Positions 3,552 through 63,355 of a stretch of 64,000 bases of DNA are shown piece by piece; within the stretch, counting starts at the first letter, position 1, and the number at the start of each line of letters is the position of its first letter. Location of the stretch: positions 112,916 to 176,915 of the forward strand of contig DATDVR010000005.1 in NCBI GenBank assembly GCA_035289925.1. The letters run 5' to 3'. Source of the DNA: Candidatus Nanoarchaeia archaeon. Its GTDB lineage: Archaea > Nanobdellota > Nanobdellia > SCGC-AAA011-G17 > DATDVL01. The position numbers and the translations under genes are program-made. The notes below the pieces were generated by a model. That model made no database searches. It was not told the origin of the DNA and was given only the letters and a program-made list of their open reading frames with translations.

Positions 3552-4348
3552 ACTCTTATGTAGATTGTAATTGGAATCCTATTGCTCTCTTTGTCCAAAA
3601 GCCAGTATTTAATCTCTCGAACAAAGACGTTTGTCTCCTGAAAAGGATCGTTGCCAACAACCTTTTCTTCTGGTTGTCCTGAAAGCTTATGATAAATTGC
3701 AAACTCCTTATTTTCTGGATAATCCCAATCATTTTTTAAATTTTCATAATCCAAACTCTTTAATTCTTCAAGCCAAGTCGGATTTATCCCCTTAATATCT
3801 TCAGTGGCGCCAAGAGCATAATCACATATTGCTGTCGAGCCGCCCATATTAAGCTGCTCTTCATTTCCATCCTTTGCCTTAAAACATCCAAAAGTGAATT
3901 CGGGACTTTCAGGATTCTTGTTTGTCTGGTGAAAAGTCAATTCGTATGGAACTGAACCTGTTGAACATACTGCTCCAGAAGTTTCAGAAGGAACGCACTT
4001 TATCTTGAATGGGTTTAGTCCTAAAACTTGAAAGTTATTTGTTGCTGGATTCTGTTGATAGGAATTGAAAATCCAATCTGGATTTCCCAAAGTATTTTTT
4101 AATTCAACTTTTATGTAAGGCCCTGCGTCAGCTTCCAAATATTCGCCCAATGAAGAGACAAATAAAGGCACTTTCTTAACCGTCCAGATGACTTCATTCT
4201 TGAAATTAATGTCAACTATATCTAGCAATACTTTTTCCTTGTAGATTGGCTTGATGCCTGGCTTGAAAACTAAAAATAAAGCAAGCAAAGAAATCAAGAA
4301 GATTCCCATGCTGATTGCCCAGTCTACATGGATGTTGCCTTTTTTCAT
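3545..4348 (-). CDS. membrane-anchored pilus-associated protein (pilin-like N-terminal TM)
   Basis: Single N-terminal TM after MKKGNIHVDW, then an extracellular Cys-containing domain; overlaps neighbouring genes, so likely an operon. Confidence 0.5.
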   Translation of the reverse strand: MKKGNIHVDWAISMGIFLISLLALFLVFKPGIKPIYKEKVLLDIVDINFKNEVIWTVKKVPLFVSSLGEYLEADAGPYIKVELKNTLGNPDWIFNSYQQNPATNNFQVLGLNPFKIKCVPSETSGAVCSTGSVPYELTFHQTNKNPESPEFTFGCFKAKDGNEEQLNMGGSTAICDYALGATEDIKGINPTWLEELKSLDYENLKNDWDYPENKEFAIYHKLSGQPEEKVVGNDPFQETNVFVREIKYWLLDKESNRIPITIYIRVW

Positions 4349-5172
4349 ATTCCACCTTTTGCCGTGGTGACTATTAAAGCTGCAGAGGTCATCAATATCA
4401 GAGAATGAATCAAACCTTGCTTCAATGTTCCCTCAGAGAATTTTCCTATCATTATTCCTGCGAAAAATCCCTGAATTAAAATCAAAGCAAAAAATATCTT
4501 GTCAAAATCCAAGCCAGAATCCTTTATTGTTATGCCACCAACTCCAGAATCAATTGATGTTGACAATCCTGTAAGCTTTGGGAAAAGCCACAATTGTAAA
4601 ATCAGCATGATGCCAATAAAAACAAAAAATACAATGTAACCCTGGACTATCTGAGAGAAGACAGACGCTTTTCTTTCCAATTTTAATTTTTTAACATTGA
4701 AGACAGAATCCACAATAGAATCTAGAACGTCTCTTATGTCGCCGCCAGACCTTTCAGCCTCGTTCACGATTGAAACTGCCCTTATTATGATATTGTTTTC
4801 AGTGTCGTTTGCAAAAGTAACCAATGCTTTCCTTACAGGGATGCCTAGTTCTATCTGGCCTGACAATTTTCTTACAAAAGGAGTCAATGCGCCATAATCT
4901 TTATTAGAAACGTGAAGGATTGAACGCGGTATAGAGATTCCTGACTTTATGCTTTCAACCAAGTTCCTCGTGAATTCCAGGAAATAAAATTCTATCTCTT
5001 TCTGCCTTTTGCTTTCGCTTAAAAAATCAATCCACGGAAGAGTCCAGCCTATTGTGATGCACAATATAATCCCAGCTGCAAACCATCTTGATCCATAAAA
5101 CAAATAAAAATTTGCTGCTAAAAGGACTATTGCAAGGAAAATTCCAATGAGATAAACTGGCTTGAATTTCAT
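4345..5172 (-). CDS. T2SS-F domain membrane protein (FlaJ/TadC-like, second half of a split platform)
   Basis: Polytopic membrane protein with a GspF/T2SSF-like cytoplasmic domain (…IRAVSIVNEAERSGGDIRDVLDSI…). Confidence 0.7.
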   Translation of the reverse strand: MKFKPVYLIGIFLAIVLLAANFYLFYGSRWFAAGIILCITIGWTLPWIDFLSESKRQKEIEFYFLEFTRNLVESIKSGISIPRSILHVSNKDYGALTPFVRKLSGQIELGIPVRKALVTFANDTENNIIIRAVSIVNEAERSGGDIRDVLDSIVDSVFNVKKLKLERKASVFSQIVQGYIVFFVFIGIMLILQLWLFPKLTGLSTSIDSGVGGITIKDSGLDFDKIFFALILIQGFFAGIMIGKFSEGTLKQGLIHSLILMTSAALIVTTAKGGI

Positions 5173-5173
5173 T

Positions 5174-6619
5174 TTAGACCTCGGGCTGTATTATGTTTAG
5201 GAACAATATGAACATGACATTCAAGACTGGCAAAACAATGTAAGCTCCAATTGTAGAGATTGTTGCAACTGATAATCCTGAAATCTGACCGCCTAGCAAG
5301 TTTATTATTGCTAGTGTAACTATAAACAGCAAAGGAGCTGCTATTAATACTCCAGTGTAGATGTCTGAATATGTTGACAAGCTTTCAACATATTTTTTTC
5401 TTTCAAGCTTGTAGTTGTTCATTGCATCTTCTGCCTTTCCCTTAAGGTAGCCTGCTAAATTTCCTCCAGACTCTATAGTTGAAGTGATTCCATTCAGCAA
5501 GTCCTTGAAAGGCTTTGAAGGCGTTGTTAATGAAACTGCTCTCAATGCCGAGCTCAAATCATATCCAAACAAGTTTACATAATTTAATATTTTATTGACT
5601 TCCCTTTCCATGCCTTTGTATTCGCCAGTAGTCAAGATGAGATGGAACATAGAAACTGGATTTGCTCCAGAACCAGCAACTGCTGCCATATGGATTATCA
5701 CAAATGGCAGGTCATTCTTTATTGCACGAGCTCTTGAATTTATTAGCAAGAAAGGATAGACATAAAAAACAAGCAAAGTCAAGAAACCAAGTATCATTGA
5801 AAGCAATACTGAAATCATAACAGAATTAATTAAATTGCTTTTACTCATTGACAAAACAAAAGTATTTGCCAGAGTCAAGAAAAATACCAACATTGAAGTG
5901 AAAAGCATCATGCTGACATAAGTCTTTGAAAGAATTTTTATATCAGCCTGGACCAAAGCATATTTTAGATTGCCAAAGATTTTTCCAGGGTTCTTTGTCA
6001 ACGACATGGTAATGCTTTCAAAAAATGTGTTGCATAATTTCCCATAAAAGCTAGACTCATATATAGAGAATTCTTTTTCTTCTATGTTTTCAATCTTCTG
6101 CCCTTTCCTGAATTTTTTGAGATAATATTCACCTATGCCAAGCTGATTCAAGTAAGCTTTTTTTGTTTTTTCATCTATTGAAACCAATTCCATAGACTTT
6201 CTTGATATAGATACTGCAGGAGGAGCTGGCCTTTGAGAAATCTCAATCTTTTCTTCTTTTTTAATTGGAAAAATAGAGGGTGATTTCAATGATTTTTTTG
6301 GCTGAGTTATTTGAGCAGTTATTTTTGAAGGCTCAGAAACTGGAGTGGCAGCAGTCACCATATGCGGCTTAGGACCGCCAACAAAGAGAGCTATTTCCTG
6401 ATTGTAATAATCCAAGTAAGACAGCAACTGCAAAATATAAAGATTGTAAGAATCTATCAGCTCACGCCTTGTCTTTCCTTTCAAAATATTGTTAATTGCA
6501 GCAGGATTATCTTTATTAGCTTCCAAATCTTCTCTAACTTTCTTCTTGTAAGACTTATAAGAACTAATTTCGTGAGTAAGTTCCAGCATCCTTGAAGTCA
6601 ATTCTTTAAGCTTTTCCAT
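5174..6619 (-). CDS. FlaJ/TadC-like pilus platform membrane protein
   Basis: About 220-aa cytoplasmic N-domain, then multiple TMs and a T2SSF-like segment (…LSSALRAVSLTTPSKPFKDLLNGITSTIESGGNLAGYL…). Confidence 0.7.
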   Translation of the reverse strand: MEKLKELTSRMLELTHEISSYKSYKKKVREDLEANKDNPAAINNILKGKTRRELIDSYNLYILQLLSYLDYYNQEIALFVGGPKPHMVTAATPVSEPSKITAQITQPKKSLKSPSIFPIKKEEKIEISQRPAPPAVSISRKSMELVSIDEKTKKAYLNQLGIGEYYLKKFRKGQKIENIEEKEFSIYESSFYGKLCNTFFESITMSLTKNPGKIFGNLKYALVQADIKILSKTYVSMMLFTSMLVFFLTLANTFVLSMSKSNLINSVMISVLLSMILGFLTLLVFYVYPFLLINSRARAIKNDLPFVIIHMAAVAGSGANPVSMFHLILTTGEYKGMEREVNKILNYVNLFGYDLSSALRAVSLTTPSKPFKDLLNGITSTIESGGNLAGYLKGKAEDAMNNYKLERKKYVESLSTYSDIYTGVLIAAPLLFIVTLAIINLLGGQISGLSVATISTIGAYIVLPVLNVMFILFLNIIQPEV

Positions 6620-6804: not shown

Positions 6805-9800
6805 TTAGATGTTTATGTTAAACTCTTTCATAACTAATTTTGGAGTCTTGTAGTAAGCATGTATGATGTCCTGAGCTTCCTTAAATCCAAAAATGCCGTG
6901 CCTATACATGCTCATCAACAACTGTGATCTTATCCTGAATTCTCTCTCCAGATATTCTTTTGACAAACCGCGATTTCTCATTATCTTTTCAAAAACCTTG
7001 CTTTCAATCTTGAAAAAGAATGTGTCAGTCCTTGGCTCCCAGATAAATGGAGTATTTTTTACTGCATCTCCTAAACTGCGTCCTAAACCTACAATCTCTG
7101 CAACTTCCCTAACCCTTCTTACTTCCTGATTCTTAACTTTTGCCTGAGTCATTATGCAGACTGCATCCAAGACTTCAATCAACGAAGGAGAAAGATTAAT
7201 TGGCTGAGTTTCCAGCCTTTTTATCATTGTTTCTACATCTTCTGCATGCATAGTAGACATTGTAGGATGGCCTGATGCTGCACCTTGGAACAAAACATAG
7301 GCTTCTTTGCCTCTTATTTCTCCTACAATAACATAATCAGGACGCTGCCTAAAAGATTCTTTCAACAAAGCAAACAAATCTATTTCAGATTCTGACTCGC
7401 CTATTCCTATAGATTCACGGGAAACAGAAGGAAGCCAGTTCTCATGCAGCAATTGCAGCTCTCTTGTGTCTTCTATTGAAACCACTCTTGCTTGAGGCGG
7501 GATAAAAAATGCTATTGAGTTTAACAAAGATGTTTTACCAGAACCTGTGCCTCCAATCACCATTATATTTGCTTCATGCTCTATCAAAATCCACAAATAG
7601 GCAAGCAATTCTGGAGAAGCTGTATTGAACTGCATCAATTTTATTGGGCTGAAAGGCTCCTTTGTAAATTTTCTTATGGTGAAAGTTGGTCCTCTTGATG
7701 AAATTTCTTGAGTGTAGGTTGCGTTGACTCTTGAATTATGACAACAAATGCCCCCAGTTCCACCTATAAAATTCTCATGGTCTTTAACTGAAAAGTCGTA
7801 GACAAATTCTTTTGTAGGTTTTACTTTATTTATCTTTACAATTCTGGCAAATCCTAAATCTGAATCAATTAATTTATTTACTATTTCCATTTCTTTTAAT
7901 AATTCTTCGCCATTTTCTGTCAGGCGCTTATCTTTAATAAATCCTCTTTTTTCCCATTCTTTAATAAACTTTTTATCAGAAATCTTACTTAAGTTTAAAA
8001 ACTTATTATATCTTTCTTCATTAATAATTTTATATAATCTATCTCTATTTAATCGTTTATTCCTTAATCTATGATGTGTCTTAGTTAATGGGTTAAATAA
8101 CTCAATTGGTATCATAGATGGGTAAGGATTTTTCACGTCCCTTACAAAGAAATTTGTATAAAATTCCCTAGATTTAATTTTTCTCTCATCAATTACTACT
8201 TCTCTTTCTCTATCATAAAAAGCAACTACATTCTTATTAAAAATTGATAAATAGCTGATTTCGTTTTGCAAATCTTTACTACTTGTGCTGCCATAGTCCC
8301 CTAGACTCCAGTATTTTAAAAATTCTGTTTGTAAATCCTTGCTTACATTAAATATTAATTCAGGAATTCTCTTTTTCTTTGCTCCTTTACTTAGTTTTAA
8401 AACTTGGGAAAGAGCAACCCAAAGTGCGTAACTATTAATATTAACCTTTATTCCATTTTCTCCATCTTTTTCAATTTTGCTGATATCCAAATCAAAGCAT
8501 AACTTTGCACTTTTTGAAATAGCTTCAATCAAATCGTCTTCTTTTTTATTTAAGGCAAACTGGGTTCCATAAGTAGAATTATAATCATACAGCCATCCTT
8601 CTGCAATATACAACCCCAAGAACCTCATCAATTCCTTATTTACTCCCAAAATTGGTTTGATTCCAATTGCAGATGTTGGTCTAATAGTGCACTTTTCTAA
8701 TTGCTCTCTAGTAAGCAAGTTATGCAATGATAATGGCAGAATATTCTTATTTTTGTGTTCATAAAATGCTTGATTTGCCTTTTTATAATTATTTTTCAAA
8801 TATGAATAAATTTCATTCTTTCTACTAGCATAAATTTCAATAGGCACATTATCCAATATTAATTGTTTTGAATGTTCTGTCTTTGAAATTTCTTCAGCCA
8901 GATTAATTTCCTTTATAGAATCATTTTCTGGCATAGCGATTGGAATTATTGCATAATCCCCTACTTTTAAATTGTCAGTCCTAACTGCCTTAACCCCTTC
9001 TTTACCCAAAGCAAATAAGCTATGGCAACCTGTTAGTTTTATTTTTCTTCCAAATTCAAGTTCTAATTCAAATAAATCTTCATTTATTTTGTGCCTATAA
9101 ACATAATCTACTTTTTTCCAATTTATTTTAAAAGTTTTTTGGTCAAATGCCGGAACTTCAATATTTGGAACTAGCACTGGTTTTGTTATTTCTTTTCCTT
9201 CATAAAATTTATCTATAAATTCCCCAATCTTTCCAGTCTTAACTATTCCATTTTCTTTATAAATTGTAGGCTCTTCATAATCAATGCTACCATCTGGCAA
9301 AGCTGCATCCAGCAAAGGCTTTGCATAAGAAATGTATTTGCCTGATTTTTGAGCCAATTTCTCCACAAAGCTAACCAATTTTTTTTCATCATCGAAAATT
9401 ATGTTTGTTCTGATGTTCCTGTATCTTCTATGAACAATGTAAATTGGAGCGTTAACTCCGTTGCACTCAATATCTTCAATAAAATAATCCTTCATCAACG
9501 GCTCTATCTCGTTCAAGCCTACAAAGTCGCGGTAAACATAGTACATTATCTTCAAGAAAGTTTCCTGGCTCATCTTTATGCCTAGTTCATTTAAAATAAC
9601 CTTGATGTTCTTGTCAAGATATTCAATTACTGCATCAGCTGTCTTGACTGAAATGAAACTTATGTTTATTAATTCCTGGATGCCGTCTTCAACCAATTTT
9701 AGCTGAGTTTTTTCCTGTTCAGACAAGATAGGCTCTTCAATATCGTAGAACAATTCATTAGTTTCATGGTTCCAGTAGATATGAGCGTTAACATAAGGAG

Positions 9801-9924
9801 CAATCAGTGGGTATCTTATGTCCAAAGTTGTAGGATCAACAGACTCTGGAAGGCTTGGAACCTCAGAAGATAGAATCTTGAAGCTAGCATCCTGCTTCAC
9901 TTCAGATTCTTTTTTTCCAAACAT
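6805..9924 (-). CDS. FlaI/TadA/VirB11-family secretion ATPase with an in-frame intein
   Basis: Exteins (212 + 309 aa) carry FlaI hallmarks: IEDIECNG…PIYIVHRRY, LPDG|SRVNATY, Walker A GGTGSGKTS, DTRELQ, GEIRG. A 518-aa insertion lies exactly inside the conserved LPDGSR motif. Confidence 0.85.
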   Translation of the reverse strand: MFGKKESEVKQDASFKILSSEVPSLPESVDPTTLDIRYPLIAPYVNAHIYWNHETNELFYDIEEPILSEQEKTQLKLVEDGIQELINISFISVKTADAVIEYLDKNIKVILNELGIKMSQETFLKIMYYVYRDFVGLNEIEPLMKDYFIEDIECNGVNAPIYIVHRRYRNIRTNIIFDDEKKLVSFVEKLAQKSGKYISYAKPLLDAALPDGSIDYEEPTIYKENGIVKTGKIGEFIDKFYEGKEITKPVLVPNIEVPAFDQKTFKINWKKVDYVYRHKINEDLFELELEFGRKIKLTGCHSLFALGKEGVKAVRTDNLKVGDYAIIPIAMPENDSIKEINLAEEISKTEHSKQLILDNVPIEIYASRKNEIYSYLKNNYKKANQAFYEHKNKNILPLSLHNLLTREQLEKCTIRPTSAIGIKPILGVNKELMRFLGLYIAEGWLYDYNSTYGTQFALNKKEDDLIEAISKSAKLCFDLDISKIEKDGENGIKVNINSYALWVALSQVLKLSKGAKKKRIPELIFNVSKDLQTEFLKYWSLGDYGSTSSKDLQNEISYLSIFNKNVVAFYDREREVVIDERKIKSREFYTNFFVRDVKNPYPSMIPIELFNPLTKTHHRLRNKRLNRDRLYKIINEERYNKFLNLSKISDKKFIKEWEKRGFIKDKRLTENGEELLKEMEIVNKLIDSDLGFARIVKINKVKPTKEFVYDFSVKDHENFIGGTGGICCHNSRVNATYTQEISSRGPTFTIRKFTKEPFSPIKLMQFNTASPELLAYLWILIEHEANIMVIGGTGSGKTSLLNSIAFFIPPQARVVSIEDTRELQLLHENWLPSVSRESIGIGESESEIDLFALLKESFRQRPDYVIVGEIRGKEAYVLFQGAASGHPTMSTMHAEDVETMIKRLETQPINLSPSLIEVLDAVCIMTQAKVKNQEVRRVREVAEIVGLGRSLGDAVKNTPFIWEPRTDTFFFKIESKVFEKIMRNRGLSKEYLEREFRIRSQLLMSMYRHGIFGFKEAQDIIHAYYKTPKLVMKEFNINI
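7735..9288 (-). other. Intein (518 aa) with LAGLIDADG homing endonuclease inside the FlaI-like ATPase
   Basis: Begins with Ser after LPDG (SIDYEEPT…IGEFID, block A-like). Has block B TGCHSLFAL and LAGLIDADG LGLYIAEGW. Ends …GICCHN immediately before the extein Ser (SRVNATY). Confidence 0.7.
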
Positions 9925-10003: not shown

Positions 10004-10537
10004 TTAAGTTATTTTTAATTCTATCATATGAGTGCCATCTGTTGTAATTTCTGAGTATTTCACCAAAATATTGTATTCACCTAAATATGGATTTGAATGA
10101 TCTGAAATTATGCTGAACTTCAAATTACTGTAAGCAACTCCCAGGTTAATATTGTATTCGTCTCTGATATTTGTCTCGTCTTGCCAGATATCTAAAGTTC
10201 CTTCTTTTTTTACAATCCTGTTTGAAGATGAAGAAGGCTCAACTATCAATGCTGTAGTTTTCATGCTCCAGTTCACTGAATTTTCATTTATGTATAAATC
10301 TCCTCTTTGAATGTTGAATGGAGACAACTCTCTTTGAGAACCAAGACCTTCAGATATTACAGTCCTGATGCTTTCATCAAAGACGTACATCAACTCTTTA
10401 GTTTGAGCAAAAGTGTTTCTATCTTTTATTTTGTTTATTAATGGAATTCCTGCTGCCAATATTAAAGTCATTGCGACAATACCAATGGCTGTATAAAGAA
10501 CAGCAGATATCCAGATCTCACCTTTTTTCATTTTCAT
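10004..10537 (-). CDS. pilin-like protein (N-terminal MKMKKGEIWISAVLYTAIGIVAMTLIL)
   Basis: Class III signal-peptide-like N-terminus; part of the pilin gene array. Confidence 0.55.
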   Translation of the reverse strand: MKMKKGEIWISAVLYTAIGIVAMTLILAAGIPLINKIKDRNTFAQTKELMYVFDESIRTVISEGLGSQRELSPFNIQRGDLYINENSVNWSMKTTALIVEPSSSSNRIVKKEGTLDIWQDETNIRDEYNINLGVAYSNLKFSIISDHSNPYLGEYNILVKYSEITTDGTHMIELKIT

Positions 10538-11010
10538 TCAATTGGAAATTCTTCTTCAAAAACTTCGCAGGCATATTTCTTTGATTTTATTGCCTGGCTG
10601 CAGATTATCTTTTCTCCAGAACCTGACAATATTGTGGCTATTGCATCTACTTCAGTGCCTGAAGACAAGCCCTGCTCAATCAAGTCAAAGTTTTTCACTC
10701 CAAATGCCTGGATTCCATCTGAAAAGCTTACTGGAATAATTTCTTCTCCAGAATGAACTCTCAAAGTCAAGTTTACAATGTCGATCTCGCCGTTATTTTC
10801 TACTGTTATCTTCTCATTTATGCAGTCAACTTTTGAAATCTCAAAATTTAATTTATTTGTACATAACAAGGCAGACTCTGTAGTCTTTCCGACATTTTCC
10901 TGAGCTTCCTGGACAAAACTTATGCCCCAGTTGAAGACTACAACTGCCAAAGCTACTGTAAAACCTATCAATAAAATTGATGCTATCAATGGAGATATAC
11001 CCTTTTTCAT
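10534..11010 (-). CDS. archaeal type IV pilin (class III signal peptide, KGISPLIASILLIGFTVALAVV)
   Basis: Textbook archaeal prepilin motif K-G-(I/V)-S-P-(L/V)-I-A; stop/start overlap with neighbours. Confidence 0.75.
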   Translation of the reverse strand: MKKGISPLIASILLIGFTVALAVVVFNWGISFVQEAQENVGKTTESALLCTNKLNFEISKVDCINEKITVENNGEIDIVNLTLRVHSGEEIIPVSFSDGIQAFGVKNFDLIEQGLSSGTEVDAIATILSGSGEKIICSQAIKSKKYACEVFEEEFPIE

Positions 11011-11493
11011 TTATTCCACCTCATACGAAACTTTTTTACTTGAACATGGCTCATAGATGCCAGGACCTATAAATACTTTTGGAATGACATCAACAACTTC
11101 TGGAGTGCCGACTTCAAACACATTAAATTCTACAGTAAAAGTCTTGACTTCTGAAGCTGATAAAGGTTCTAAAACTTCCAAACTATTCTGACCCTTGCTG
11201 CCACGAACTACAAACACAAAACCATCAACATCATTCTTTAAATTTTCAACATCAACATCCAATGAAGAACCTGATAAAGAAACGCCCTTGATTGTGACTG
11301 CGATATCTGTCAAACAGTCAAGCTTTGATGAAGAAATTGCACCCTGCTTCTGCTTCAATTCTGTGACATAAGTCCTGTTCCATAATGTTACTGTTGCAAC
11401 AACAGCTATAGTGAATCCAATTAGCAAAACAGTTGCTATCAATGGGGAGACACCTCTTTTCAACATATCACCTTCACGCTCCTTGAACTGCAT
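11011..11493 (-). CDS. archaeal type IV pilin (class III signal peptide, RGVSPLIATVLLIGFTIAVV)
   Basis: Motif RGVSPLIATVLLIGFT. The true start is probably the internal Met (MLKRGVSP) at about 11466, which removes the overlap with the upstream gene. Confidence 0.75.
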   Translation of the reverse strand: MQFKEREGDMLKRGVSPLIATVLLIGFTIAVVATVTLWNRTYVTELKQKQGAISSSKLDCLTDIAVTIKGVSLSGSSLDVDVENLKNDVDGFVFVVRGSKGQNSLEVLEPLSASEVKTFTVEFNVFEVGTPEVVDVIPKVFIGPGIYEPCSSKKVSYEVE

Positions 11494-11885
11494 GTAGAGT
11501 TCCTTGAAATAGGAATGAACTCAATTTCATCACCCGGTATAGTGTCTAAAATGCTATTTAACACTTTCGTTTGCCCAGGTATTATTGACTCGTCCCAGAT
11601 ATTTCTGTTTCCATTTACAATCATCTCGTCATTTATCCTTATTATAAAATCGTCTATTGTAAAACTTCCCTTGTTTGAAATTTTTGGATTGGAGCAGTCA
11701 TTTGTCAAGTTAACATTAAAAGAGATATCATTGCAAAGCATGTCCTCATTTATAGGATCTACAATGTCCTTCACGTCTTTTTCTACAGTGCTTTTAATCC
11801 AGATGGAAACTATTGTTGCCAAGGCTATCGTCATGCCAACTAATAATATCCAGGATATTATTTCTGATGCTGCCCTCTTATTCAT
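11460..11885 (-). CDS. pilin-like protein
   Basis: N-terminal hydrophobic helix after MNKRAASEI…; in the pilin array. Confidence 0.5.
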   Translation of the reverse strand: MNKRAASEIISWILLVGMTIALATIVSIWIKSTVEKDVKDIVDPINEDMLCNDISFNVNLTNDCSNPKISNKGSFTIDDFIIRINDEMIVNGNRNIWDESIIPGQTKVLNSILDTIPGDEIEFIPISRNSTCSSRSVKVIC

Positions 11886-12543
11886 TTTGCTCCTCTAAAT
11901 TAATAGGAAGTGCTTCTTTAAAGTTTCCTTTTGTATAGACTTTTCTCTGGTTGCCTTTTTCTTCCCTGCCTACAATAACTACATCTGGCTTGCCCTTGTT
12001 TATCTCAACTTCATATTGGACATCGCCTAGCCTTATATTTATGTTGTAATTGTTAGAGTCTGTTATTCCAATCTGCTTTGTGCATGCAACCAATGAACCT
12101 ACTTTTATCCCTGAAACAGACCATTCACCGCCTGCAACTCTAAATCCAGCTAAAATATTTCTTGAACAACCAACTAAATTTTCCTCTATATTTTGGTCTT
12201 CCTTGATAATTTTTACATCTTGGTCTAGATAATTGCCAACGTATAACTTGCTTTTGTAGTCAAACAAATATAATAATCCAAACTTGGGGTTTTTTGTCTT
12301 TGAGTATGAAGTGAAGAATGAAGTGAAATCCTCGAAATACTGCCTGATATCTGAATCTGTGAATGATTGAGACAACAAATAATTGACGAACTTAGCAGAT
12401 TCTACATCATAATTCTGAGACAATTCTTCAAAATCATCATCTAAGATTGTTCTTTTTACAACATTCGTGTCTGTGTAAAGCAAATAGATAACAAAGGCTA
12501 GAATAATGACTGTCAAAAGATATACCTGCCCTCTTTTTTGCAT
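11878..12543 (-). CDS. pilin-like protein (MQKRGQVYLLTVIILAFVIYLL)
   Basis: KRGQ followed by a hydrophobic helix; first gene of the pilin array. Confidence 0.55.
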   Translation of the reverse strand: MQKRGQVYLLTVIILAFVIYLLYTDTNVVKRTILDDDFEELSQNYDVESAKFVNYLLSQSFTDSDIRQYFEDFTSFFTSYSKTKNPKFGLLYLFDYKSKLYVGNYLDQDVKIIKEDQNIEENLVGCSRNILAGFRVAGGEWSVSGIKVGSLVACTKQIGITDSNNYNINIRLGDVQYEVEINKGKPDVVIVGREEKGNQRKVYTKGNFKEALPINLEEQNE

Positions 12544-16725: not shown

Positions 16726-17736
16726 ATGAAAAATAGTCCTAAAGATATCGGAAAGAAAAACGTACTAAGAGATTCGGAGAATCTGGATCCTAAAGGTTTG
16801 AAAGAAGTTCATGGATACGACTTCAATAATGGGGTAAATTATGATAAAATGTTTGAAGCTTACGCATCAACAGGATTTCAAGCAACCCACTTAAATGAAG
16901 CCATTCAATTGATTAAAAAAATGAGAGAGGAAAAATGCACTATCTTTTTAGGATACACTTCAAGCATGATTTCATCTGGCTTAAGAGATGTTTTCAGATA
17001 TTTAGTTGAACATAAATTTGTTGATGTTGTTGTAACAACTGCAGGTGGAATTGAAGAAGACATAATTAAATGCATAAAACCATTTTTACTTGGAAAGTTT
17101 TCAATGTCTGGTGAATATCTAAGAGAGAAAGGTATCAACAGGGCTGGAAATGTCTTGATTCCTAATTCCAGATACTGCGCTTTTGAAGATTTTTTTGTTC
17201 CAATTTTAAAAGAGATTGTTGAAGAACAGAAGAAGACTGGAAAAGTTTATGCAACAAATGACTTAATATGGAAACTGGGAGATAAAATAAACAATAAAGA
17301 GTCAATCTATTACTGGGCAAACAAAAACAAGATACCTGTTTTCTGTCCTGCAATAACTGATGGTTCTATTGGGGACATGATGTACTTCTTTTCCTATGAC
17401 AATCCAGAATTAAAAATTGATTCTGTTGCCGACATAAGAAAATTAAACGACATTGCAATAACTGCCAAGAAAACTGGACTGATTATATTAGGTTCTGGTG
17501 TAGTTAAGCACCACATCTTGAATGCAAACATGATGAGGAATGGAGCAGATTATACAGTTTATGTGAATACTGCTGAAGAATATGACGGAAGCGATGCTGG
17601 GGCTAGACCAGATGAAGCTGTTTCATGGGGGAAGATACTTCCAGATGCTAGAGCTGTAAAAGTACATGCAGATGCAACTTTAGTATTTCCTATAATAGTT
17701 GCTGAAACTTTTGCTAAGGAAAAAAGCCTAGGGTAG
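16726..17736 (+). CDS. dys: deoxyhypusine synthase
   Basis: DHS blocks [66 protein letters not shown]. Confidence 0.9.
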
Positions 17737-17810
17737 GAATTGCACCTACGACCTCAGGTTAATTCGCAAATGATACGAAACCCGTGCTCCACTAATTAAG
17801 CTACCTAGGC
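17725..17810 (-). tRNA. tRNA-Thr (anticodon CGU) with 13-nt canonical intron (37/38)
   Basis: Acceptor GCCTAGG/CCTAGGC, D-stem GCTT/GAGC, anticodon stem CGGGT/ACCTG. Loop TTCGTA then intron TCATTTGCGAATT (17761..17773); TTCG pairs with intron CGAA, flanked by 3-nt bulges (a BHB-like fold). T-loop TGCAATT with G55, as in the other Thr tRNA. Confidence 0.65.
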
Positions 17811-22125: not shown

Positions 22126-24702
22126 ATGATGGCAAAACAAGTTATGGAAATGGGACAAGTAAAGAAAAGGGACGGAAGTCTAGTTGAATTCAACAAAGAA
22201 AAAATTGAAAATGCAATATTTTCAGCAGCAAAATCTGTTGGAGGAAAAGACAAAAAAATAGCAACAAATCTAGCCAATCTAGTAATTGAAGAATTAAAAA
22301 AGAATTTTGGCAATAATGTTCCTACAGTTGAAGACGTGCAAGATGCAGTTGAAAAAGTTTTAATTGAGGAAGGACACGCCAAAACTGCAAAGCATTACAT
22401 CCTTTACAGGCAGAAAAGAAATGAAGTTAGAAGAGAGAAAGCAGTAGTATTAGAAAAAGATGGCTTGGATGAAGTTGACAAAAGATTTGACGTTAATGCA
22501 TTGAGAGTTTTAAAAGCAAGATACTTGAGAAAGTCTGAAGATGGAAAATTGATAGAGACTCCTAAACAATTGTGGACAAGGGTATGCGTTCATGGAGCTT
22601 TACCAGAATTGATATATGACACAAGAATATTTGACATGAACAAAAAGCAGAAGTCGCACAAAGCAGAAGATTTTAATCCAAAAGAGCATGAAGATAATGT
22701 TTCAATTGGCAAATACAAGCTAAACCAGCATCATCTTCAAGCATTAAAGCGGATGTATGACAGGGCTGACCAAAGCTGGAATGCAATGAAAGTTTCTTGG
22801 ACTGAATTTTTTGGAATGCTCAAGAAAGGAGAGCTTAACAATCATGAAAAGACAATAAATAATTTTTATAAAATAATGACTGAAAAGCAGTTTGTGCCAA
22901 ACACGCCCGCAATTGCAAACTTTGGGGCTGTATTAGGGATGGGAAGCGCATGCTTTGTGATGGATGTAGAAGACTCAATTGAAGGCATAATGCAGACTTT
23001 GAAAGATGCATCAATTGTTTTCAAATCTGGAGGAGGCATTGGCTATAACTTCTCGAAATTAAGAAATGAAGGTGATTTTGTCACGACAACATGCGGAGTA
23101 GCATCAGGTCCAATAATATTCATGACATTATTTGACAAGATGACTGATGTAATAAAGCAAGGCGGAATCAGAAGAGGGGCAAATATGGGGATATTAAACA
23201 GCAACCACCCTGATATTGAAAAATTCATAACAGCAAAAGCTGGAAACAAAGCTTTGAAGAATTTCAACATCTCAGTTTTGATAATGCCTGACTTCTGGGA
23301 ACATTATGAAAAAGGAACTCCTTATCCTTTAAGAAACCCAAGGACTGGAGAAGTTGTAAGGACTATAGATCCAAAGCAATTGTTTGACAGCATTGTCTAC
23401 CAAGCATGGGAATCTGCAGAGCCTGGTGTAATTTTCTACGACAAAGTAAACGAGACAAACCCTTTCTTTGAAAGCCTAGGTCCAATAGTAACAACAAATC
23501 CTTGCGGAGAAGTCCTACTTTATCCAAATGAAAGCTGCAACTTAGGAAGCGTAAACCTATGGAGCTTTGCAAAGCAGAACGAGGATGGAGAAACATACTT
23601 TGACTGGGAAGGATTGAAAGAAACAGTATATTCTGGATGCAGGTTTTTAGACAACATAATCGATGTAAACAAGTTCCCATTGAAAGCAATTGAAGACATG
23701 ACCTTGGCAACAAGAAAAATTGGATTTGGGGTGATGGGATTGGGAGATGTAATGTACGAGCTAAAAATTGCATACAACTCTGATGAAGGAAGGAAGTTCA
23801 TGGAAAAAATAATGCAGTTCATAAACTACCACTCTAAATTAATTTCTATAGAACTTGCAAAAGAAAAAGGACCATTGCCATACTATGGCAAAAGCTTCTA
23901 TCCAAAAGGAAGAATGCCATTTACTGGCTTCAACGACAAGAAGTCATGGGACTTTGACTGGGATGAAATTGTAAGGCAAGTCAAGAAGCACGGAATTAGA
24001 AATGGGTACACCACAATAATAGCCCCAACAGGAAGCATCTCAATGATTGCGGGAACATCTTCTGGAATTGAACCTGTTTACAGTCTGATATTTGAGAAGA
24101 ACGTAAAGGTAGGAAGCTTCTATTATGTAGATCCAGTCTTTGAAAGAGTAATGAAAGAAGAAGGACTGTATGATGAAAAACTTATGAATGATGTCTGCGA
24201 AAACAGGGGAAGTATTCAAAACATTCCTTATATTCCAGACAGATTGAAGAAAATCTTTATAACAGCAATGGATACTATACCTGAAGACCATATCTATGCG
24301 TTGGCAACATTCCAGAAATGGGTTGACTCAAGCATATCAAAGACGAATAACTTTCCAGCAAATGCAACTGTCGAGTACATGAAAGAAAGCTATTTACTAG
24401 CTTACAAGCTTGGGTGCAAAGACGTAACCGTGTTCAGAGACTCTTCAATACAAGATCAGGTATTGGTTGCTCCTAAAAAAGCAGACGGAAGCAAAGGAAA
24501 AGAAGAAAAAAGACTTGGAGAAACTGCACAAATTAATGCAATAAAAACAAGTTTAGTAGAACCAGCTGATCTATCTGGGGCAATATCAAGAGTAGCAGGA
24601 AAATATGAAGGATTGACTTCTTGCCCTGAGTGTGGAACAAAAACAGCTGTAATTGAAGGTTGTGTCACATGCAAGAGCTGCGGCTGGGGACTCTGCAAGT
24701 AG
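22126..24702 (+). CDS. nrdJ: class II (adenosylcobalamin-dependent) ribonucleotide reductase with N-terminal ATP-cone and C-terminal zinc ribbon
   Basis: ATP-cone VKKRDGSLVEFNKEKI; catalytic blocks NPCGEVLL, ESCNLGS; C-terminal CPECG…CVTCKSCG. Confidence 0.9.
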   Translation: MMAKQVMEMGQVKKRDGSLVEFNKEKIENAIFSAAKSVGGKDKKIATNLANLVIEELKKNFGNNVPTVEDVQDAVEKVLIEEGHAKTAKHYILYRQKRNEVRREKAVVLEKDGLDEVDKRFDVNALRVLKARYLRKSEDGKLIETPKQLWTRVCVHGALPELIYDTRIFDMNKKQKSHKAEDFNPKEHEDNVSIGKYKLNQHHLQALKRMYDRADQSWNAMKVSWTEFFGMLKKGELNNHEKTINNFYKIMTEKQFVPNTPAIANFGAVLGMGSACFVMDVEDSIEGIMQTLKDASIVFKSGGGIGYNFSKLRNEGDFVTTTCGVASGPIIFMTLFDKMTDVIKQGGIRRGANMGILNSNHPDIEKFITAKAGNKALKNFNISVLIMPDFWEHYEKGTPYPLRNPRTGEVVRTIDPKQLFDSIVYQAWESAEPGVIFYDKVNETNPFFESLGPIVTTNPCGEVLLYPNESCNLGSVNLWSFAKQNEDGETYFDWEGLKETVYSGCRFLDNIIDVNKFPLKAIEDMTLATRKIGFGVMGLGDVMYELKIAYNSDEGRKFMEKIMQFINYHSKLISIELAKEKGPLPYYGKSFYPKGRMPFTGFNDKKSWDFDWDEIVRQVKKHGIRNGYTTIIAPTGSISMIAGTSSGIEPVYSLIFEKNVKVGSFYYVDPVFERVMKEEGLYDEKLMNDVCENRGSIQNIPYIPDRLKKIFITAMDTIPEDHIYALATFQKWVDSSISKTNNFPANATVEYMKESYLLAYKLGCKDVTVFRDSSIQDQVLVAPKKADGSKGKEEKRLGETAQINAIKTSLVEPADLSGAISRVAGKYEGLTSCPECGTKTAVIEGCVTCKSCGWGLCK

Positions 24703-30932: not shown

Positions 30933-31135
30933 AAGCAAAATAGCTCTCTTACCTTCTATATCACTGTTGCTTCACATTTTCGACTAGTTACTAAGTGTTG
31001 CAACTGAATTTTATGGCTACTCTATGCCCTAGTAAAAGAGCGTGTAGCCTAACAATTCTTAACTTCATAACAATAAGTTACTCATTAGTTAAGCTATGCT
31101 AAGGCAAAATAACGATAGAATCTAATCTTATAAAA

Positions 31136-31972
31136 TTATTGGTAAAGCTTTATTATTGTCTTTTCAAAATCTTCTCTTGTTGAATCTGCAACGAAAGGTT
31201 TTGAAACTCTTAAAATCTCTTCTAAAGTTGGTGTCTTTATTTCCTGTGGAGATTTTTGCGCGCCGACTGCACGTACCCCAACAAAACGCCCATTGCCGCT
31301 GAAGTAGTTGACGCCATCAAGACCGCCGAAGTCAACGCCACCAACATAAGACAAGCGCCCTAAATTCTTTTGTTTTATATCTTTAGCTTCATTAAACCTA
31401 TGCCAGCTTCCTAGTGTATTAACTCTATAAGTTTCCGTTGCTTTCTTGAAATAAGCTGAAGCCCTTTCAACGCTGCCAGATTTTGCTAAAACTATGTCAT
31501 TTTTTATCCATTCTTCTTGTGTAAGCCTTTCTGACTTTGCTTTTTGCGCATTGCTTAAAGGCATTATAACTGCATAATTTCTTGGAAGCTTTGAATCTCC
31601 ATTTTTTCTTAAATCTTTTATAGAAACTACTGCCCTTTCATCTGATTCTTCAAGAACGGCTTTAAGCTCGTCATCTGTGACTTCAACAAAACCATAATCT
31701 AGTTGGTTTTTTCTTTTTGCCCTTATTGTATCTGGAGTGAATACCTTTGTTCCATGCTCGATTACTGCAAGCTTACTTCCTTTTGAAGCATATTCGGCTC
31801 CATTTGGAATATACCAAGTATTGAATGGCAGTTCATTATTAATTCTTGCCTGAAGTATCTCTGGAGAAGTAAATATTGTCTTAAGCTCTCTTTGAGCTGT
31901 TTCTAAAGCAACAGCTAAAACTGAATTATAAACTGGCAATAGTTCTCTTTTCTCTAGAGTTGAGTTTAGCAT
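31136..31972 (-). CDS. DGR target (variable) protein with C-terminal FGE/C-type-lectin-like fold
   Basis: C-terminal RVNTLGSW…(VR: LSYVGGVDFGGLDGVNYFSGNGRFVGVRAV) resembles FGE-sulfatase/CLec-fold DGR targets (RVxRGGSW…GFRxV). The VR sits at aa about 199-227 of 278. Confidence 0.85.
   Translation of the reverse strand: MLNSTLEKRELLPVYNSVLAVALETAQRELKTIFTSPEILQARINNELPFNTWYIPNGAEYASKGSKLAVIEHGTKVFTPDTIRAKRKNQLDYGFVEVTDDELKAVLEESDERAVVSIKDLRKNGDSKLPRNYAVIMPLSNAQKAKSERLTQEEWIKNDIVLAKSGSVERASAYFKKATETYRVNTLGSWHRFNEAKDIKQKNLGRLSYVGGVDFGGLDGVNYFSGNGRFVGVRAVGAQKSPQEIKTPTLEEILRVSKPFVADSTREDFEKTIIKLYQ
31273..31358 (-). repeat. DGR variable repeat (VR) inside the target gene
   Basis: 86 bp, 69/86 identical to the TR; all 17 differences are plus-strand T in the TR (an A in the coding sense) against C, A or G in the VR. 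Confidence 0.9.
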
Positions 31973-50426: not shown

Positions 50427-50539
50427 GGGCCTGTAATTTAACCAGGATCAGAATGCGAGGCTTCGGTTTGGCCTTTGGCTAGATTTAATGCCTATCTTGG
50501 AGAAACCTTGATATCCAGGTTCAAATCCTGGCAGGCTCA
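50427..50539 (+). tRNA. tRNA-Arg (anticodon UCG) with ~38-nt intron at 37/38
   Basis: Acceptor GGGCCTG/CAGGCTC (one G·U), D-stem ATTT/GAAT, anticodon stem CGAGG/CCTTG, loop CTTCGG, T-arm CCAGG-TTCAAAT-CCTGG. Exon CTTC pairs with intron GGAG next to 3-nt bulges (BHB-like); intron about 50467..50504. Confidence 0.55.
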
Positions 50540-60952: not shown

Positions 60953-63355
60953 TTAATCCGTTATGCTCTTGACAAATTGTTCTGCATCTCTTGTAAGCTT
61001 ATTTATCTGTAAACTAAGTTTTACTTTTTTTATCTCAATCTTATTACATTCATTAATTATCCTCAATCTTGTTTTAGGGTCTGGGAATGGGATTTCAACA
61101 TCTCCTATAGTATCCGAGTTCAAGGTATAACCTTTCGTAGCTCTCTGTGCAAAAGGCACATAGTCGATAGTTGGCAAAATGTAATAAAGATATTTTAACA
61201 AAGCCTTGTCTTTTTTATTCAAAGGAACAAGATGGGATATTGCTTCGTTAGTATAAAGTTCTGTTCCAGCAAATGCAACTTTTCCAATAGTTAGCTTAAA
61301 ACTGAATAATAGACTTCCAGCTTGGAACTTTTTAACAGAAGAGTTTTCTATTCCTTCTTCAGTAATTTTTTCATCAGTATTCAAAATAAGCTTTCGATTC
61401 ATATCACTTATTTTTACCCAAAGATTATCGCCATCCCAATATGCTGGATTATTTCTTGCAGGAGTTCCACCGATACTAGGATATTCACATATTTGGCTTA
61501 GTAATTTAACTGGAACTTTATGTATTGCTTTCTTTTTATAACTGTTCATGGTCAATTTGTAATTATTATTCTTGATTTCATCAAAAGTCACGCTGAATGA
61601 ATTTTTGGAGTCCATTCTATCATTGCATAATTCTCTCAATAGAGGCAAATCGTTATCCTTTATAGAAGGTCTTCCTTTTCTACTCTGAGTTTTTTTAAAT
61701 CCGTCATTTATAACATCAAAAAACCAGACCTTCTTAGTTTGACTTCCTTTTTCAAATATGAGTATACTTGTTGGTTGTCCAGTATATGGCTTGAAGACGA
61801 AGGGGTCTAATTGGATAATTGCTTTTACATTACAAGTAGTTAAAAGAATTTTTCTTAAATCAACATATTCCTTGCTTTTGTCAAATAATAATCCATCGGG
61901 CACAACAACTCCCGCTCTACCCCCTGCAATCCCATCTTTTGGATTTTTAAGAGCATCAATAACATGTTTAAGAAATACAGGATTTGCATTTTTATTTTTA
62001 AAACCATACAGATGAGAATATTTTGTGCTTTGAGAAAATGGAAAATTTGTCATTACAACATCAAATTTATCTTTGATTGGATGTTCAAGTGAATCTACTT
62101 GATTGATATTTGTATGTCCATCTCCTATTATTATCATATTCATTTTAGCTATTTTTGCAGTGCCAGTTATTTCCCTACCCCATACAGTATCTTCTTCTAA
62201 AGTCTGCATATTTTCTTTAGTTTGCTTACATTTCTTTTTTATATGCCTAAAAGCTTCAATAAGGAAGCCTCCAGTTCCACAGCAGGGGTCATATACCTTT
62301 TCTTTGAACAGGGGGTCAATAAGTGCAGTTATTAATTTAACAATGTGCCTTGGTGTAAAATATTCACCTAAATCATTCCCAACACTTACGGAGTCTTTTA
62401 GAAAATACTCAAAAGCATCTCCTTTAATATCGGAATCTGCATTGATTAACTGTAATTGGGATAATTTATCAACAATTTTCTTTATATTATTAGGGTTTTT
62501 AATTTTTAACTCTGATTGAAAAACATCCCCACTATGATTATATTTATTTACAAGTCTTGGTAAAATTGTATCATTAATGTAATCTAAAATACCTTGTCCA
62601 TCTTTATTTTTAAAAGCATCCCAACAATATCTTTTTTCTAATCTTCTTGGTTCTCCACTATTTTCTCTATCATCTTCAATTTCACTAATTAATTTAAGGA
62701 AAAGTATATTGGAAAATTCAGTAAACCTTTCTATTCCTTCCCTCATGCCTTCTTCTCTTAGTAAGTTATTTGCTTCAGAAAATACTTTTATCAATTCTCT
62801 TTTTGTATAAGTTACCTTTTCTGGAGAAAATATTTCTGCCCCTTCCTTTTCAAATCTCAATAATGTTTTTTCATTAATTAAGTCTGTAATAAGGGAGCCA
62901 TCAATTTTAAGATTATACCCTGTTCTTATATCTCTCGCTTCAACGATGGCACCATCAACAGCAAATATTATTTTAATTCCTAAACAGATTGCATAATCTT
63001 TTGCCTGTTTTAATGCTTTTTCTAAACTTTGCCCTTGCCTTTTAGCTTCTATAATTGCTAATGGTTTAAATTCATCAGAAGTGTAAAGGACATAATCTGG
63101 AAATTTTCCTTTAGGAAATTTTTGTTTTATTTTTTTCCTCTCTTCTTCTGTTCTTGGTCTCTCTGTAAAAACATTACACTCTTTTCCAAATTCGTCAGTT
63201 TTCCAACCTAGGTTATTTAAAATTAAATCTATTTTCTTTCTGGTTGCACTCTCTAAAGGAGAAGTAAACTCTTTTTGCATAGAAATACCATGATTTATAC
63301 CTTTAAGAATTTTTCGTTCTTTTTTTACCACCAATGAATGAAAGGTTCTTTTCAT
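60953..63355 (-). CDS. single-chain Type IIG-like restriction-modification enzyme (HsdR_N-type nuclease + N6-adenine methyltransferase + TRD)
   Basis: N-terminal PD-(D/E)xK (PDYVLY…IIEAKRQG); methylase motif I DPCCGTGGFL and motif IV MTNFPFS; C-terminal HsdS-like target-recognition region. Confidence 0.7.
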   Translation of the reverse strand: MKRTFHSLVVKKERKILKGINHGISMQKEFTSPLESATRKKIDLILNNLGWKTDEFGKECNVFTERPRTEEERKKIKQKFPKGKFPDYVLYTSDEFKPLAIIEAKRQGQSLEKALKQAKDYAICLGIKIIFAVDGAIVEARDIRTGYNLKIDGSLITDLINEKTLLRFEKEGAEIFSPEKVTYTKRELIKVFSEANNLLREEGMREGIERFTEFSNILFLKLISEIEDDRENSGEPRRLEKRYCWDAFKNKDGQGILDYINDTILPRLVNKYNHSGDVFQSELKIKNPNNIKKIVDKLSQLQLINADSDIKGDAFEYFLKDSVSVGNDLGEYFTPRHIVKLITALIDPLFKEKVYDPCCGTGGFLIEAFRHIKKKCKQTKENMQTLEEDTVWGREITGTAKIAKMNMIIIGDGHTNINQVDSLEHPIKDKFDVVMTNFPFSQSTKYSHLYGFKNKNANPVFLKHVIDALKNPKDGIAGGRAGVVVPDGLLFDKSKEYVDLRKILLTTCNVKAIIQLDPFVFKPYTGQPTSILIFEKGSQTKKVWFFDVINDGFKKTQSRKGRPSIKDNDLPLLRELCNDRMDSKNSFSVTFDEIKNNNYKLTMNSYKKKAIHKVPVKLLSQICEYPSIGGTPARNNPAYWDGDNLWVKISDMNRKLILNTDEKITEEGIENSSVKKFQAGSLLFSFKLTIGKVAFAGTELYTNEAISHLVPLNKKDKALLKYLYYILPTIDYVPFAQRATKGYTLNSDTIGDVEIPFPDPKTRLRIINECNKIEIKKVKLSLQINKLTRDAEQFVKSITD

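Follow-up and report, generated by a model that had tools for sequence, protein, structure and literature searches.

The stretch of DNA analysed here, which we call the window (64,000 nucleotides of the Candidatus Nanoarchaeia archaeon assembly GCA_035289925.1, contig DATDVR010000005.1, positions 112,916 to 176,915), contains on its reverse strand an intact open reading frame (ORF; 6805..9924) that encodes a 1039-residue precursor of a T2SSE/FlaI/TadA-family ATPase. We found that this protein is split by an insert of 518 residues which, very probably, is a class-1 intein with a LAGLIDADG homing endonuclease located at the LPDG/SR motif of a pilus-type ATPase (here and below, a slash marks a junction). 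The sequence leaves little doubt that the insert is a splicing intein, and it seems reasonably likely, judging from its conserved residues and a structural model, that the homing endonuclease is active.

All parts of the gene lie on the reverse strand. The N-extein (residues 1-212, 9289..9924) ends in ...LLDAALPDG; the intein (precursor residues 213-730, 7735..9288), recognised by profiles and fold, runs from Ser1 to Asn518; and the C-extein (residues 731-1039 and the stop codon, 6805..7734) starts with SRVNATYT and holds the Walker A motif GGTGSGKT together with SIEDTRE, VGEIRG and GHPTMSTMHA. The ends of the insert read ...ALPDG/SIDYEEPTIY...GGICCHN/SRVNA. At the N-terminal junction the codons are GCT TTG CCA GAT GGT / AGC ATT GAT TAT (ALPDG/SIDY) and at the C-terminal one TGT TGT CAT AAT / TCA AGA GTC AAC (CCHN/SRVN), the TCA at 7732..7734 being the codon of Ser+1. 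Deletion of the 518 residues gives a mature product of 521 residues in which LPDGSRVNATY is uninterrupted. Residues 23-516 of this spliced product align with A. fulgidus GspE (2OAP; E 2.3e-118) without any gap at the junction, and in the alignment LPDGSR is also unbroken in S. acidocaldarius FlaI (4II7) and in Caulobacter CpaF. Ten close DPANN orthologues of 578-632 residues have a contiguous motif as well, with no long insert at LPDG/S. An initial annotation of this DNA, made from the letters alone, had already placed the 518-residue insert at 7735-9288 and had predicted that removing it would restore the motif; both statements hold on the ORF, the product being collinear with 2OAP, FlaI and CpaF. 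The comparison with homologues that it proposed gives the gapless junction described above, and none of 2OAP, 4II7, CpaF and the ten DPANN orthologues carries a long insertion at that place.

The intein identity put forward in that annotation is now supported by three curated profiles scoring above their cut-offs, namely Pfam Intein_splicing PF14890 (79.5 bits against 35.8), TIGR01445 for the intein N-terminal region (30.8 against 24.5) and TIGR01443 for the C-terminal region (21.5 against 15.6), and by a predicted fold that combines a HINT splicing domain with an endonuclease. The N-terminal half of the HINT domain comprises intein residues 1-136 (8881..9288), aligns with the mini-inteins 5o9i/5o9j and with residues 11-158 of PI-PkoII, and is kept in a shortened relative (protein P0067, see below). 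It contains block A, SIDYEEPTIYKEN (9250..9288), with the Ser1 nucleophile, and block B, LTGCHSLFAL (9007..9036), with the T86-x-x-H89 signature. Among inteins at the same site, S1 and E6 of block A are invariant and D3 is at least 90% conserved, whereas in block B H89 and S90 are invariant and T86 is at least 90% conserved. At the other end we found the two blocks whose presence had been left to be checked: block F, EFVYDFSVKDHENFIGG (7759..7809; V496, Y497, D498, S500, E505, N506, F507 and G510 invariant), and block G, GGICCHN (7735..7755; G512, G513, C516, H517 and N518 invariant), in which His517-Asn518 is followed by Ser+1. The serine start, block B TGCHSLFAL, the LGLYIAEGW motif and the HN end before an extein serine, all noted at first sight of the sequence, are thus present. 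A position-1 nucleophile (Ser1), a T-x-x-H in block B, a C-terminal His-Asn and an extein Ser+1 are the features of a class-1 intein. Two cysteines deserve a comment: block G has Cys-Cys directly before His-Asn, and its Cys516 is invariant family-wide at a position that is aliphatic in most inteins, while Cys88 of block B is not conserved among the same-site inteins. Repeats and other-strand ORFs were also sought inside the intein; the repeats were no more than chance matches in AT-rich sequence, and the ORFs numbered two, at 42-49 residues.

The insertion point lies between Gly212 and Ser213 of D-A-A-L-P-D-G/S-R, in the N-terminal domain of the ATPase. By alignment, D-A-A-L-P-D-G-S-R of the host corresponds to D215-A-R217-L-P-D-G-S-R223 of CpaF, and the arginine two residues past the junction, counted along the alignment, is R208 of afGspE and R223 of CpaF. 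According to a cryo-electron microscopy study of CpaF, the N-terminal-domain arginine fingers R217 and R223 turn toward the ATP triphosphate (PMC12019362). Given the equivalence with R223, the intein splits the loop two residues before an arginine that contacts the nucleotide. The site is 67 residues upstream of Walker A (GGTGSGK/T), which agrees with the earlier suggestion that it differs from the better-known intein sites in P-loops.

The endonuclease region spans residues 137-372 (8173..8880) and consists of a helical subdomain and a LAGLIDADG core; it is absent from P0067 and corresponds to PI-PkoII residues 250-392. LAGLIDADG motif 1, FLGLYIAEG (8596..8622), carries the predicted catalytic Glu230, and its G225, Y227, E230, G231 and W232 are invariant. 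Block D, GAKKKRIP (8362..8385), with Lys306 and invariant A303, K306 and P309, aligns with AENKRIPEF of PI-PkoII. A second LAGLIDADG motif, not identified in the initial annotation, was found at residues 323-333: FLKYWSLGDYG (8290..8322), with the predicted catalytic Asp331, aligns with FLEGYFIGDGD of PI-PkoII, and its G330 and D331 are at least 90% conserved. Between the endonuclease and the C-terminal splicing blocks there is an extra, partly helical domain (residues 373-475, 7864..8172) that is retained in P0067, aligns with PI-PkoII residues 462-537 and is equivalent to the C-terminal extra domain of that intein. A MerR-type helix-turn-helix match at intein residues 440-486 was weak and below threshold (E 0.078).

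An AlphaFold model of the intein built with 23 family members had a mean predicted local distance difference test score (pLDDT) of 93.3 and a predicted template modelling score (pTM) of 0.90. With Foldseek, the model matched PI-PkoII (2cw7) over its full length (E 4.5e-33, TM-scores 0.71/0.68). Next in order were two VMA inteins (TliVMA and PhoVMA) with PI-PfuI and PI-SceI, and below these the free-standing LAGLIDADG enzymes I-OnuI, I-DmoI and I-SceI. LAGLIDADG enzymes carry their catalytic acids at the ends of both LAGLIDADG helices; in the model, helices 218-230 and 317-331 terminate at Glu230 and Asp331.

PI-PkoII, the Pol-2 intein of the Thermococcus kodakarensis DNA polymerase (2CW7), has the same build as the window intein: its HINT domain is split, both motifs and block D of its LAGLIDADG core can be aligned, and it has the extra C-terminal domain. 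The two sequences match with E 8.9e-22 in three segments; the first and the last are the N- and C-terminal halves of HINT, and the middle one takes in both LAGLIDADG motifs and block D. However, PI-PkoII resides in another host protein and at another insertion site, and is only about 20% identical to the window intein. The closest solved splicing domains are those of the Methanocaldococcus TFIIB mini-inteins 5O9I/5O9J, with E 7e-28 and 34-37% identity across both HINT halves and a very similar N-terminus, (S or A)VDYNEPIIIKENGEIKVVKIGELID against SIDYEEPTIYKENGIVKTGKIGEFID; these differ in that the crystallised proteins are without the endonuclease region and the host is a transcription factor. 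Outside the ATPases, the nearest relatives in an exhaustive search were inteins of archaeal MCM helicases (E 1e-80 to 1e-70, 35-41% identical), which again have another host and site and fall well below the ATPase group (E 1e-142 or better).

KlbA inteins, whose hosts are VirB11/FlaI-like ATPases, are classics. Since M. jannaschii KlbA (MJ0781) belongs to the same secretion-ATPase superfamily and its intein construct (PDB 2JMZ) starts DG/ALAYDEP, resembling LPDG/, we checked whether the two sites are identical, and rejected the classical KlbA site: the DG of 2JMZ belongs to a GHDG near the His box. In the KlbA orthologue of Methanocaldococcus indicus, LPDGSRVNAT is contiguous, within ...LDAFLPDGSRVNATL..., and the intein sits at ...AMNTGHDG/ALIKDE...VSN/CSGTLHANS, near the His box. 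Between the two inteins, the HINT domains show a distant relationship (E 4.2e-5), but KlbA is a mini-intein of 168 residues with Ala1 and Cys+1, in contrast to the Ser1/Ser+1 intein with endonuclease of the window. With Ala1 and Cys+1, KlbA is a class-2 intein.

A search with the full precursor gave 410 proteins at E <= 1e-20, of which the best 120 were listed, and 54 of these 120 carry a homologous intein at exactly (L or M)P(D, E, N or G)G/S...CHN/SR, so that there are at least 54. These same-site inteins are 512-524 residues long and 45-63% identical to that of the window, and all 54 end in CHN/SR. Invariant among them are S1, H89, S90, E230, G231, W232, K306, P309, D498, E505-N506-F507 and C516-H517-N518. 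Where the source of a carrier is named, it is Woesearchaeota, Pacearchaeota or Nanoarchaeota. When 1.84 billion cluster representatives were scanned exhaustively with HMMER, 1246 relatives came out at E <= 1e-3, and the five best of them belong to the ATPase group with the intein at LPDG/S. A word-indexed search with the intein alone had given 14 matches; this apparent rarity was rejected as an artefact, because a composition rich in Lys, Asn and Ile swamped the list of candidates, and the full-length and exhaustive searches gave more than 50. The unusual character of the site implied by the initial annotation was in this respect overstated, with at least 54 public homologues having the same intein at LPDG/S. 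An identical intein is present in ENA (P0001), and in the automatic annotation of the Joint Genome Institute some same-site proteins are already labelled 'intein/homing endonuclease'. A survey catalogues inteins of archaeal VirB11-type ATPases, 21 in COG0630 and 5 in CpaF (PMC4760082). In the searchable literature, a search that did not extend to intein site catalogues, we found no published description of the LPDG/S site. The window intein adds one more member to a known kind of intein, and LPDG/S is a well-populated site.

When the inserts of 122 proteins were mapped against a profile built from intein-free family members, six insertion sites emerged: a, LPDG/S (54 proteins and 3 partial ones); b, GPTF/C...FD/TIRKF (6); c, GSGK/C...HN/T (5); d, (S)IED/S...HN/T (31); e, IRG/S...HN/SEA (3); and f, QGAA/S...HN/SGH (30). 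Together they mark two N-terminal-domain arginines, Walker A, the Asp box, a point just after Walker B, and the His box. Intein-free proteins number ten among the 122; a single intein occurs in 91, two occur in 17 and three in one, in a ranking that is biased toward intein carriers since the query itself contained an intein. With its six sites, and with as many as three inteins in one protein, the DPANN pilus-type ATPase is a hot spot for inteins. Protein P0067 (1791 residues) has inteins at sites a, c and f; in P0133 (2097 residues), from the exhaustive scan, inteins at a, b and d make up 1550 of the 2097 residues (74%). The inteins at sites b-f share the host family, and all sit at nucleotide-site motifs, but none of them is more than 26% identical to that of the window. 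Their terminal residues differ too: those at b and c start with Cys1, and those at b seem to have Asp as their last residue. The site b inteins (P0057, P0060, P0103, P0113, P0116, P0122 and P0133) appear to end in Phe-Asp instead of His-Asn; with boundaries taken from the extein alignment alone, they would be of a rare C-terminal-Asp type without the penultimate His.

Several signs point to mobility of the site a intein. Across 53 carriers, pairwise identities of inteins and exteins are only moderately correlated (Mantel r 0.36, with 0/2000 permutations as high). The extein most similar to that of the window, at 73%, belongs to P0022, whose intein is distant (about 50% identical), and the inteins nearest to the window's (62-63%) are found in exteins of lower similarity. 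The intein has a GC content of 28.6% and a GC content at third codon positions (GC3) of 0.21, against 0.40 in the N-extein and 0.35 in the C-extein; the 28 other ORFs of the window have a mean GC3 of 0.29 +/- 0.05. The site a intein of P0067 is reduced to 279 residues and lacks the endonuclease region equivalent to residues 137-372, a deletion that marks the domain boundaries and is decay of the kind expected in a homing cycle. The existence of intein-free orthologues is counted as a further sign. As a whole these observations are consistent with horizontal spread by homing, without amounting to proof of it.

The boundaries, conserved blocks, modelled fold, restored motif and family-wide conservation described so far suggest how splicing, by the standard four-step route of class-1 inteins, and homing may proceed. 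The 1039-residue precursor would be made with the 60-kDa intein splitting the arginine-finger loop and, with that loop split, the ATPase of the precursor is presumably inactive. The HINT domain would bring both junctions together, and Ser1, aided by T86 and H89, would undergo an N-to-O acyl shift; the conserved Ser+1 of the extein, which comes from the LPDGSR motif of the host, would then attack the resulting ester. Cyclisation of Asn518, aided by His517 and block F, would free the intein, and an O-to-N shift would remake a native G-S peptide bond to give the 521-residue ATPase with its LPDGSR. The nucleophiles at both junctions, Ser1 and Ser+1, would thus be oxygen nucleophiles. The freed intein may in turn cut alleles that lack the intein, its recognition site extending across TTGCCAGATGGT/TCAAGAGTCAAC, which codes for LPDG-SRVN, and so lead to gene conversion, that is, homing. 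The reconstructed intein-less target reads ...GCAGCTTTGCCAGATGGT/TCAAGAGTCAACGCAACC...

Some of the data count against a mobile intein with a working endonuclease. Pfam LAGLIDADG models gave no match to the window intein at E up to 1, and among relatives they matched weakly in 5 of 23 (best E 0.0017), so that the endonuclease assignment rests on the PI-PkoII alignment, the motifs and the predicted fold; motif 2 has GDY where GDG is usual; part of the low GC content of the intein might stem from a composition rich in Lys and Asn and not from a foreign origin; and the incongruence between intein and extein is the outcome of a Mantel test. An intein that splices while its endonuclease is inactive or decaying, and that persists only because it is difficult to remove exactly from a catalytic loop that is essential, would account for the Pfam miss and the atypical second motif, for the loss of the endonuclease core in the relative P0067, and for the vertical inheritance, at least in part, that the correlation with the exteins shows. 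Nonetheless we consider it rather unlikely. Relatives that are only 40-85% identical to one another all keep E230, K306, G225, Y227, G231 and W232, and conservation of D331 among them is at least 90%, which argues for selection on the endonuclease; moreover, the fold is complete and confidently predicted, and the histories of intein and extein disagree.

Inserts at this site occur in most of the closest homologues listed, as would be the case for a lineage-specific accessory domain fixed in the family and staying, unspliced, in the mature ATPase. Such a domain is hardly credible here: all the splicing blocks are present and invariant, the fold is that of a HINT domain with a homing endonuclease, the insert splits a loop with a conserved arginine finger, and ten close orthologues and all the solved structures do without it. 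A third possibility, compatible with a spliced intein bearing a homing endonuclease, is that splicing is conditional and gates the activity of the pilus ATPase post-translationally. The insertion in a catalytically important loop and the occurrence of inteins at six nucleotide-site motifs of this ATPase family would fit it, and conditional splicing is reported for other inteins (PMC11409957, PMC6195587). We nevertheless judge it improbable, as there is no hint of a sensor, the use of Ser as nucleophile at both junctions leaves no redox-sensitive catalytic Cys, and clustering at conserved motifs is, according to a survey, the general pattern for selfish inteins (PMC4760082). A regulatory role of the intein is speculative.

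Taking the insert as a class-1 intein with a homing endonuclease, the gene should be annotated with a 521-residue ATPase and a 60-kDa endonuclease as its true products, and not with a 1039-residue 'TadA'. In terms of intein biology, LPDG/S is a populated site beside the N-terminal-domain arginine finger of secretion-superfamily ATPases, distinct from the P-loop and KlbA sites, and the accumulation of inteins at six sites fits the known rule that they target conserved catalytic motifs. There is a slim prospect that the family is an unusually dense hot spot outside the replication machinery whose inteins, if splicing is conditional, gate pilus assembly; if so, the gating would possibly reach host attachment in these episymbiotic archaea, the window intein being the commonest switch. 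Chemistry that relies on Ser1 and Ser+1 and needs no catalytic cysteine might have some slight practical interest for redox-insensitive protein ligation. The current understanding of inteins is unchanged by this element, which is a sound but ordinary find.

Regarding the host itself, Pfam T2SSE matches the protein with E 7.8e-30, and the FlaI equivalog NF058587 of NCBIfam reaches 380.7 bits where its cut-off asks for 550, so that the host is not archaellum FlaI proper. Downstream on the same strand, two T2SSF platform proteins are encoded, one of 481 residues (5174..6619; TadB/C, FlaJ-like; Pfam T2SSF E 1.4e-15) and one of 275 residues (4345..5172; Pfam T2SSF E 3.9e-14). Upstream, also on the reverse strand, there is a run of five small ORFs (10004..12543), and in translation four of them begin like archaeal pilins (e.g. 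KRGVSPLIATVLLIGFT); the matches of these ORFs to Pilin_N (E 0.0055) and DUF7289 of Pfam are weak, both below cut-off. From this N-terminal motif and from what is generally held of archaeal class III signal peptides, we read the four as pilins. No archaellum-specific gene was seen among the adjacent ORFs examined. Given the FlaI score and the T2SSF and pilin-like neighbours, the host is classed only as a pilus-type ATPase of the T2SSE/FlaI/TadA family.

The N-extein contains a homopolymer of eight A (9379..9386, reverse strand), 90 nucleotides upstream of the intein. In the independent ENA assembly ERZ4903072 (k141_530687, locus L007), which is otherwise identical over 8.6 kb, the tract has nine A, and the ATPase gene is thereby split into ORFs of 184 and 861 residues. 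The difference is probably an assembly or sequencing error, and a slippage-prone A tract is a possible source of it.

Elsewhere in the window, a class-II-like ribonucleotide reductase of 858 residues with an ATP-cone domain is encoded at 22126..24702 (forward strand). Ribonucleotide reductases are frequent intein hosts in archaea; this one has no intein, and no further intein was found in it or in the other large ORFs of the window that were tested. An 800-residue single-chain restriction-modification protein (60953..63355, reverse strand) combines N6_Mtase, a type I specificity domain (Methylase_S) and a fragment of HSDR_N. Two tRNA genes are over-long: one of 86 nucleotides at 17725..17810 (reverse strand), to which ARAGORN gives the odd four-base anticodon 'cgta', and one of 113 nucleotides at 50427..50539 (forward strand), which Rfam alone finds; both probably contain archaeal introns. 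Finally, an RT-16 RNA (Rfam RF03019) lies at 30935..31103 on the reverse strand; the match covers the full model and scores 90.7 bits, the gathering score being 50, and directly upstream of it, on the same strand, an ORF of 278 residues (31136..31972) has no Pfam match.

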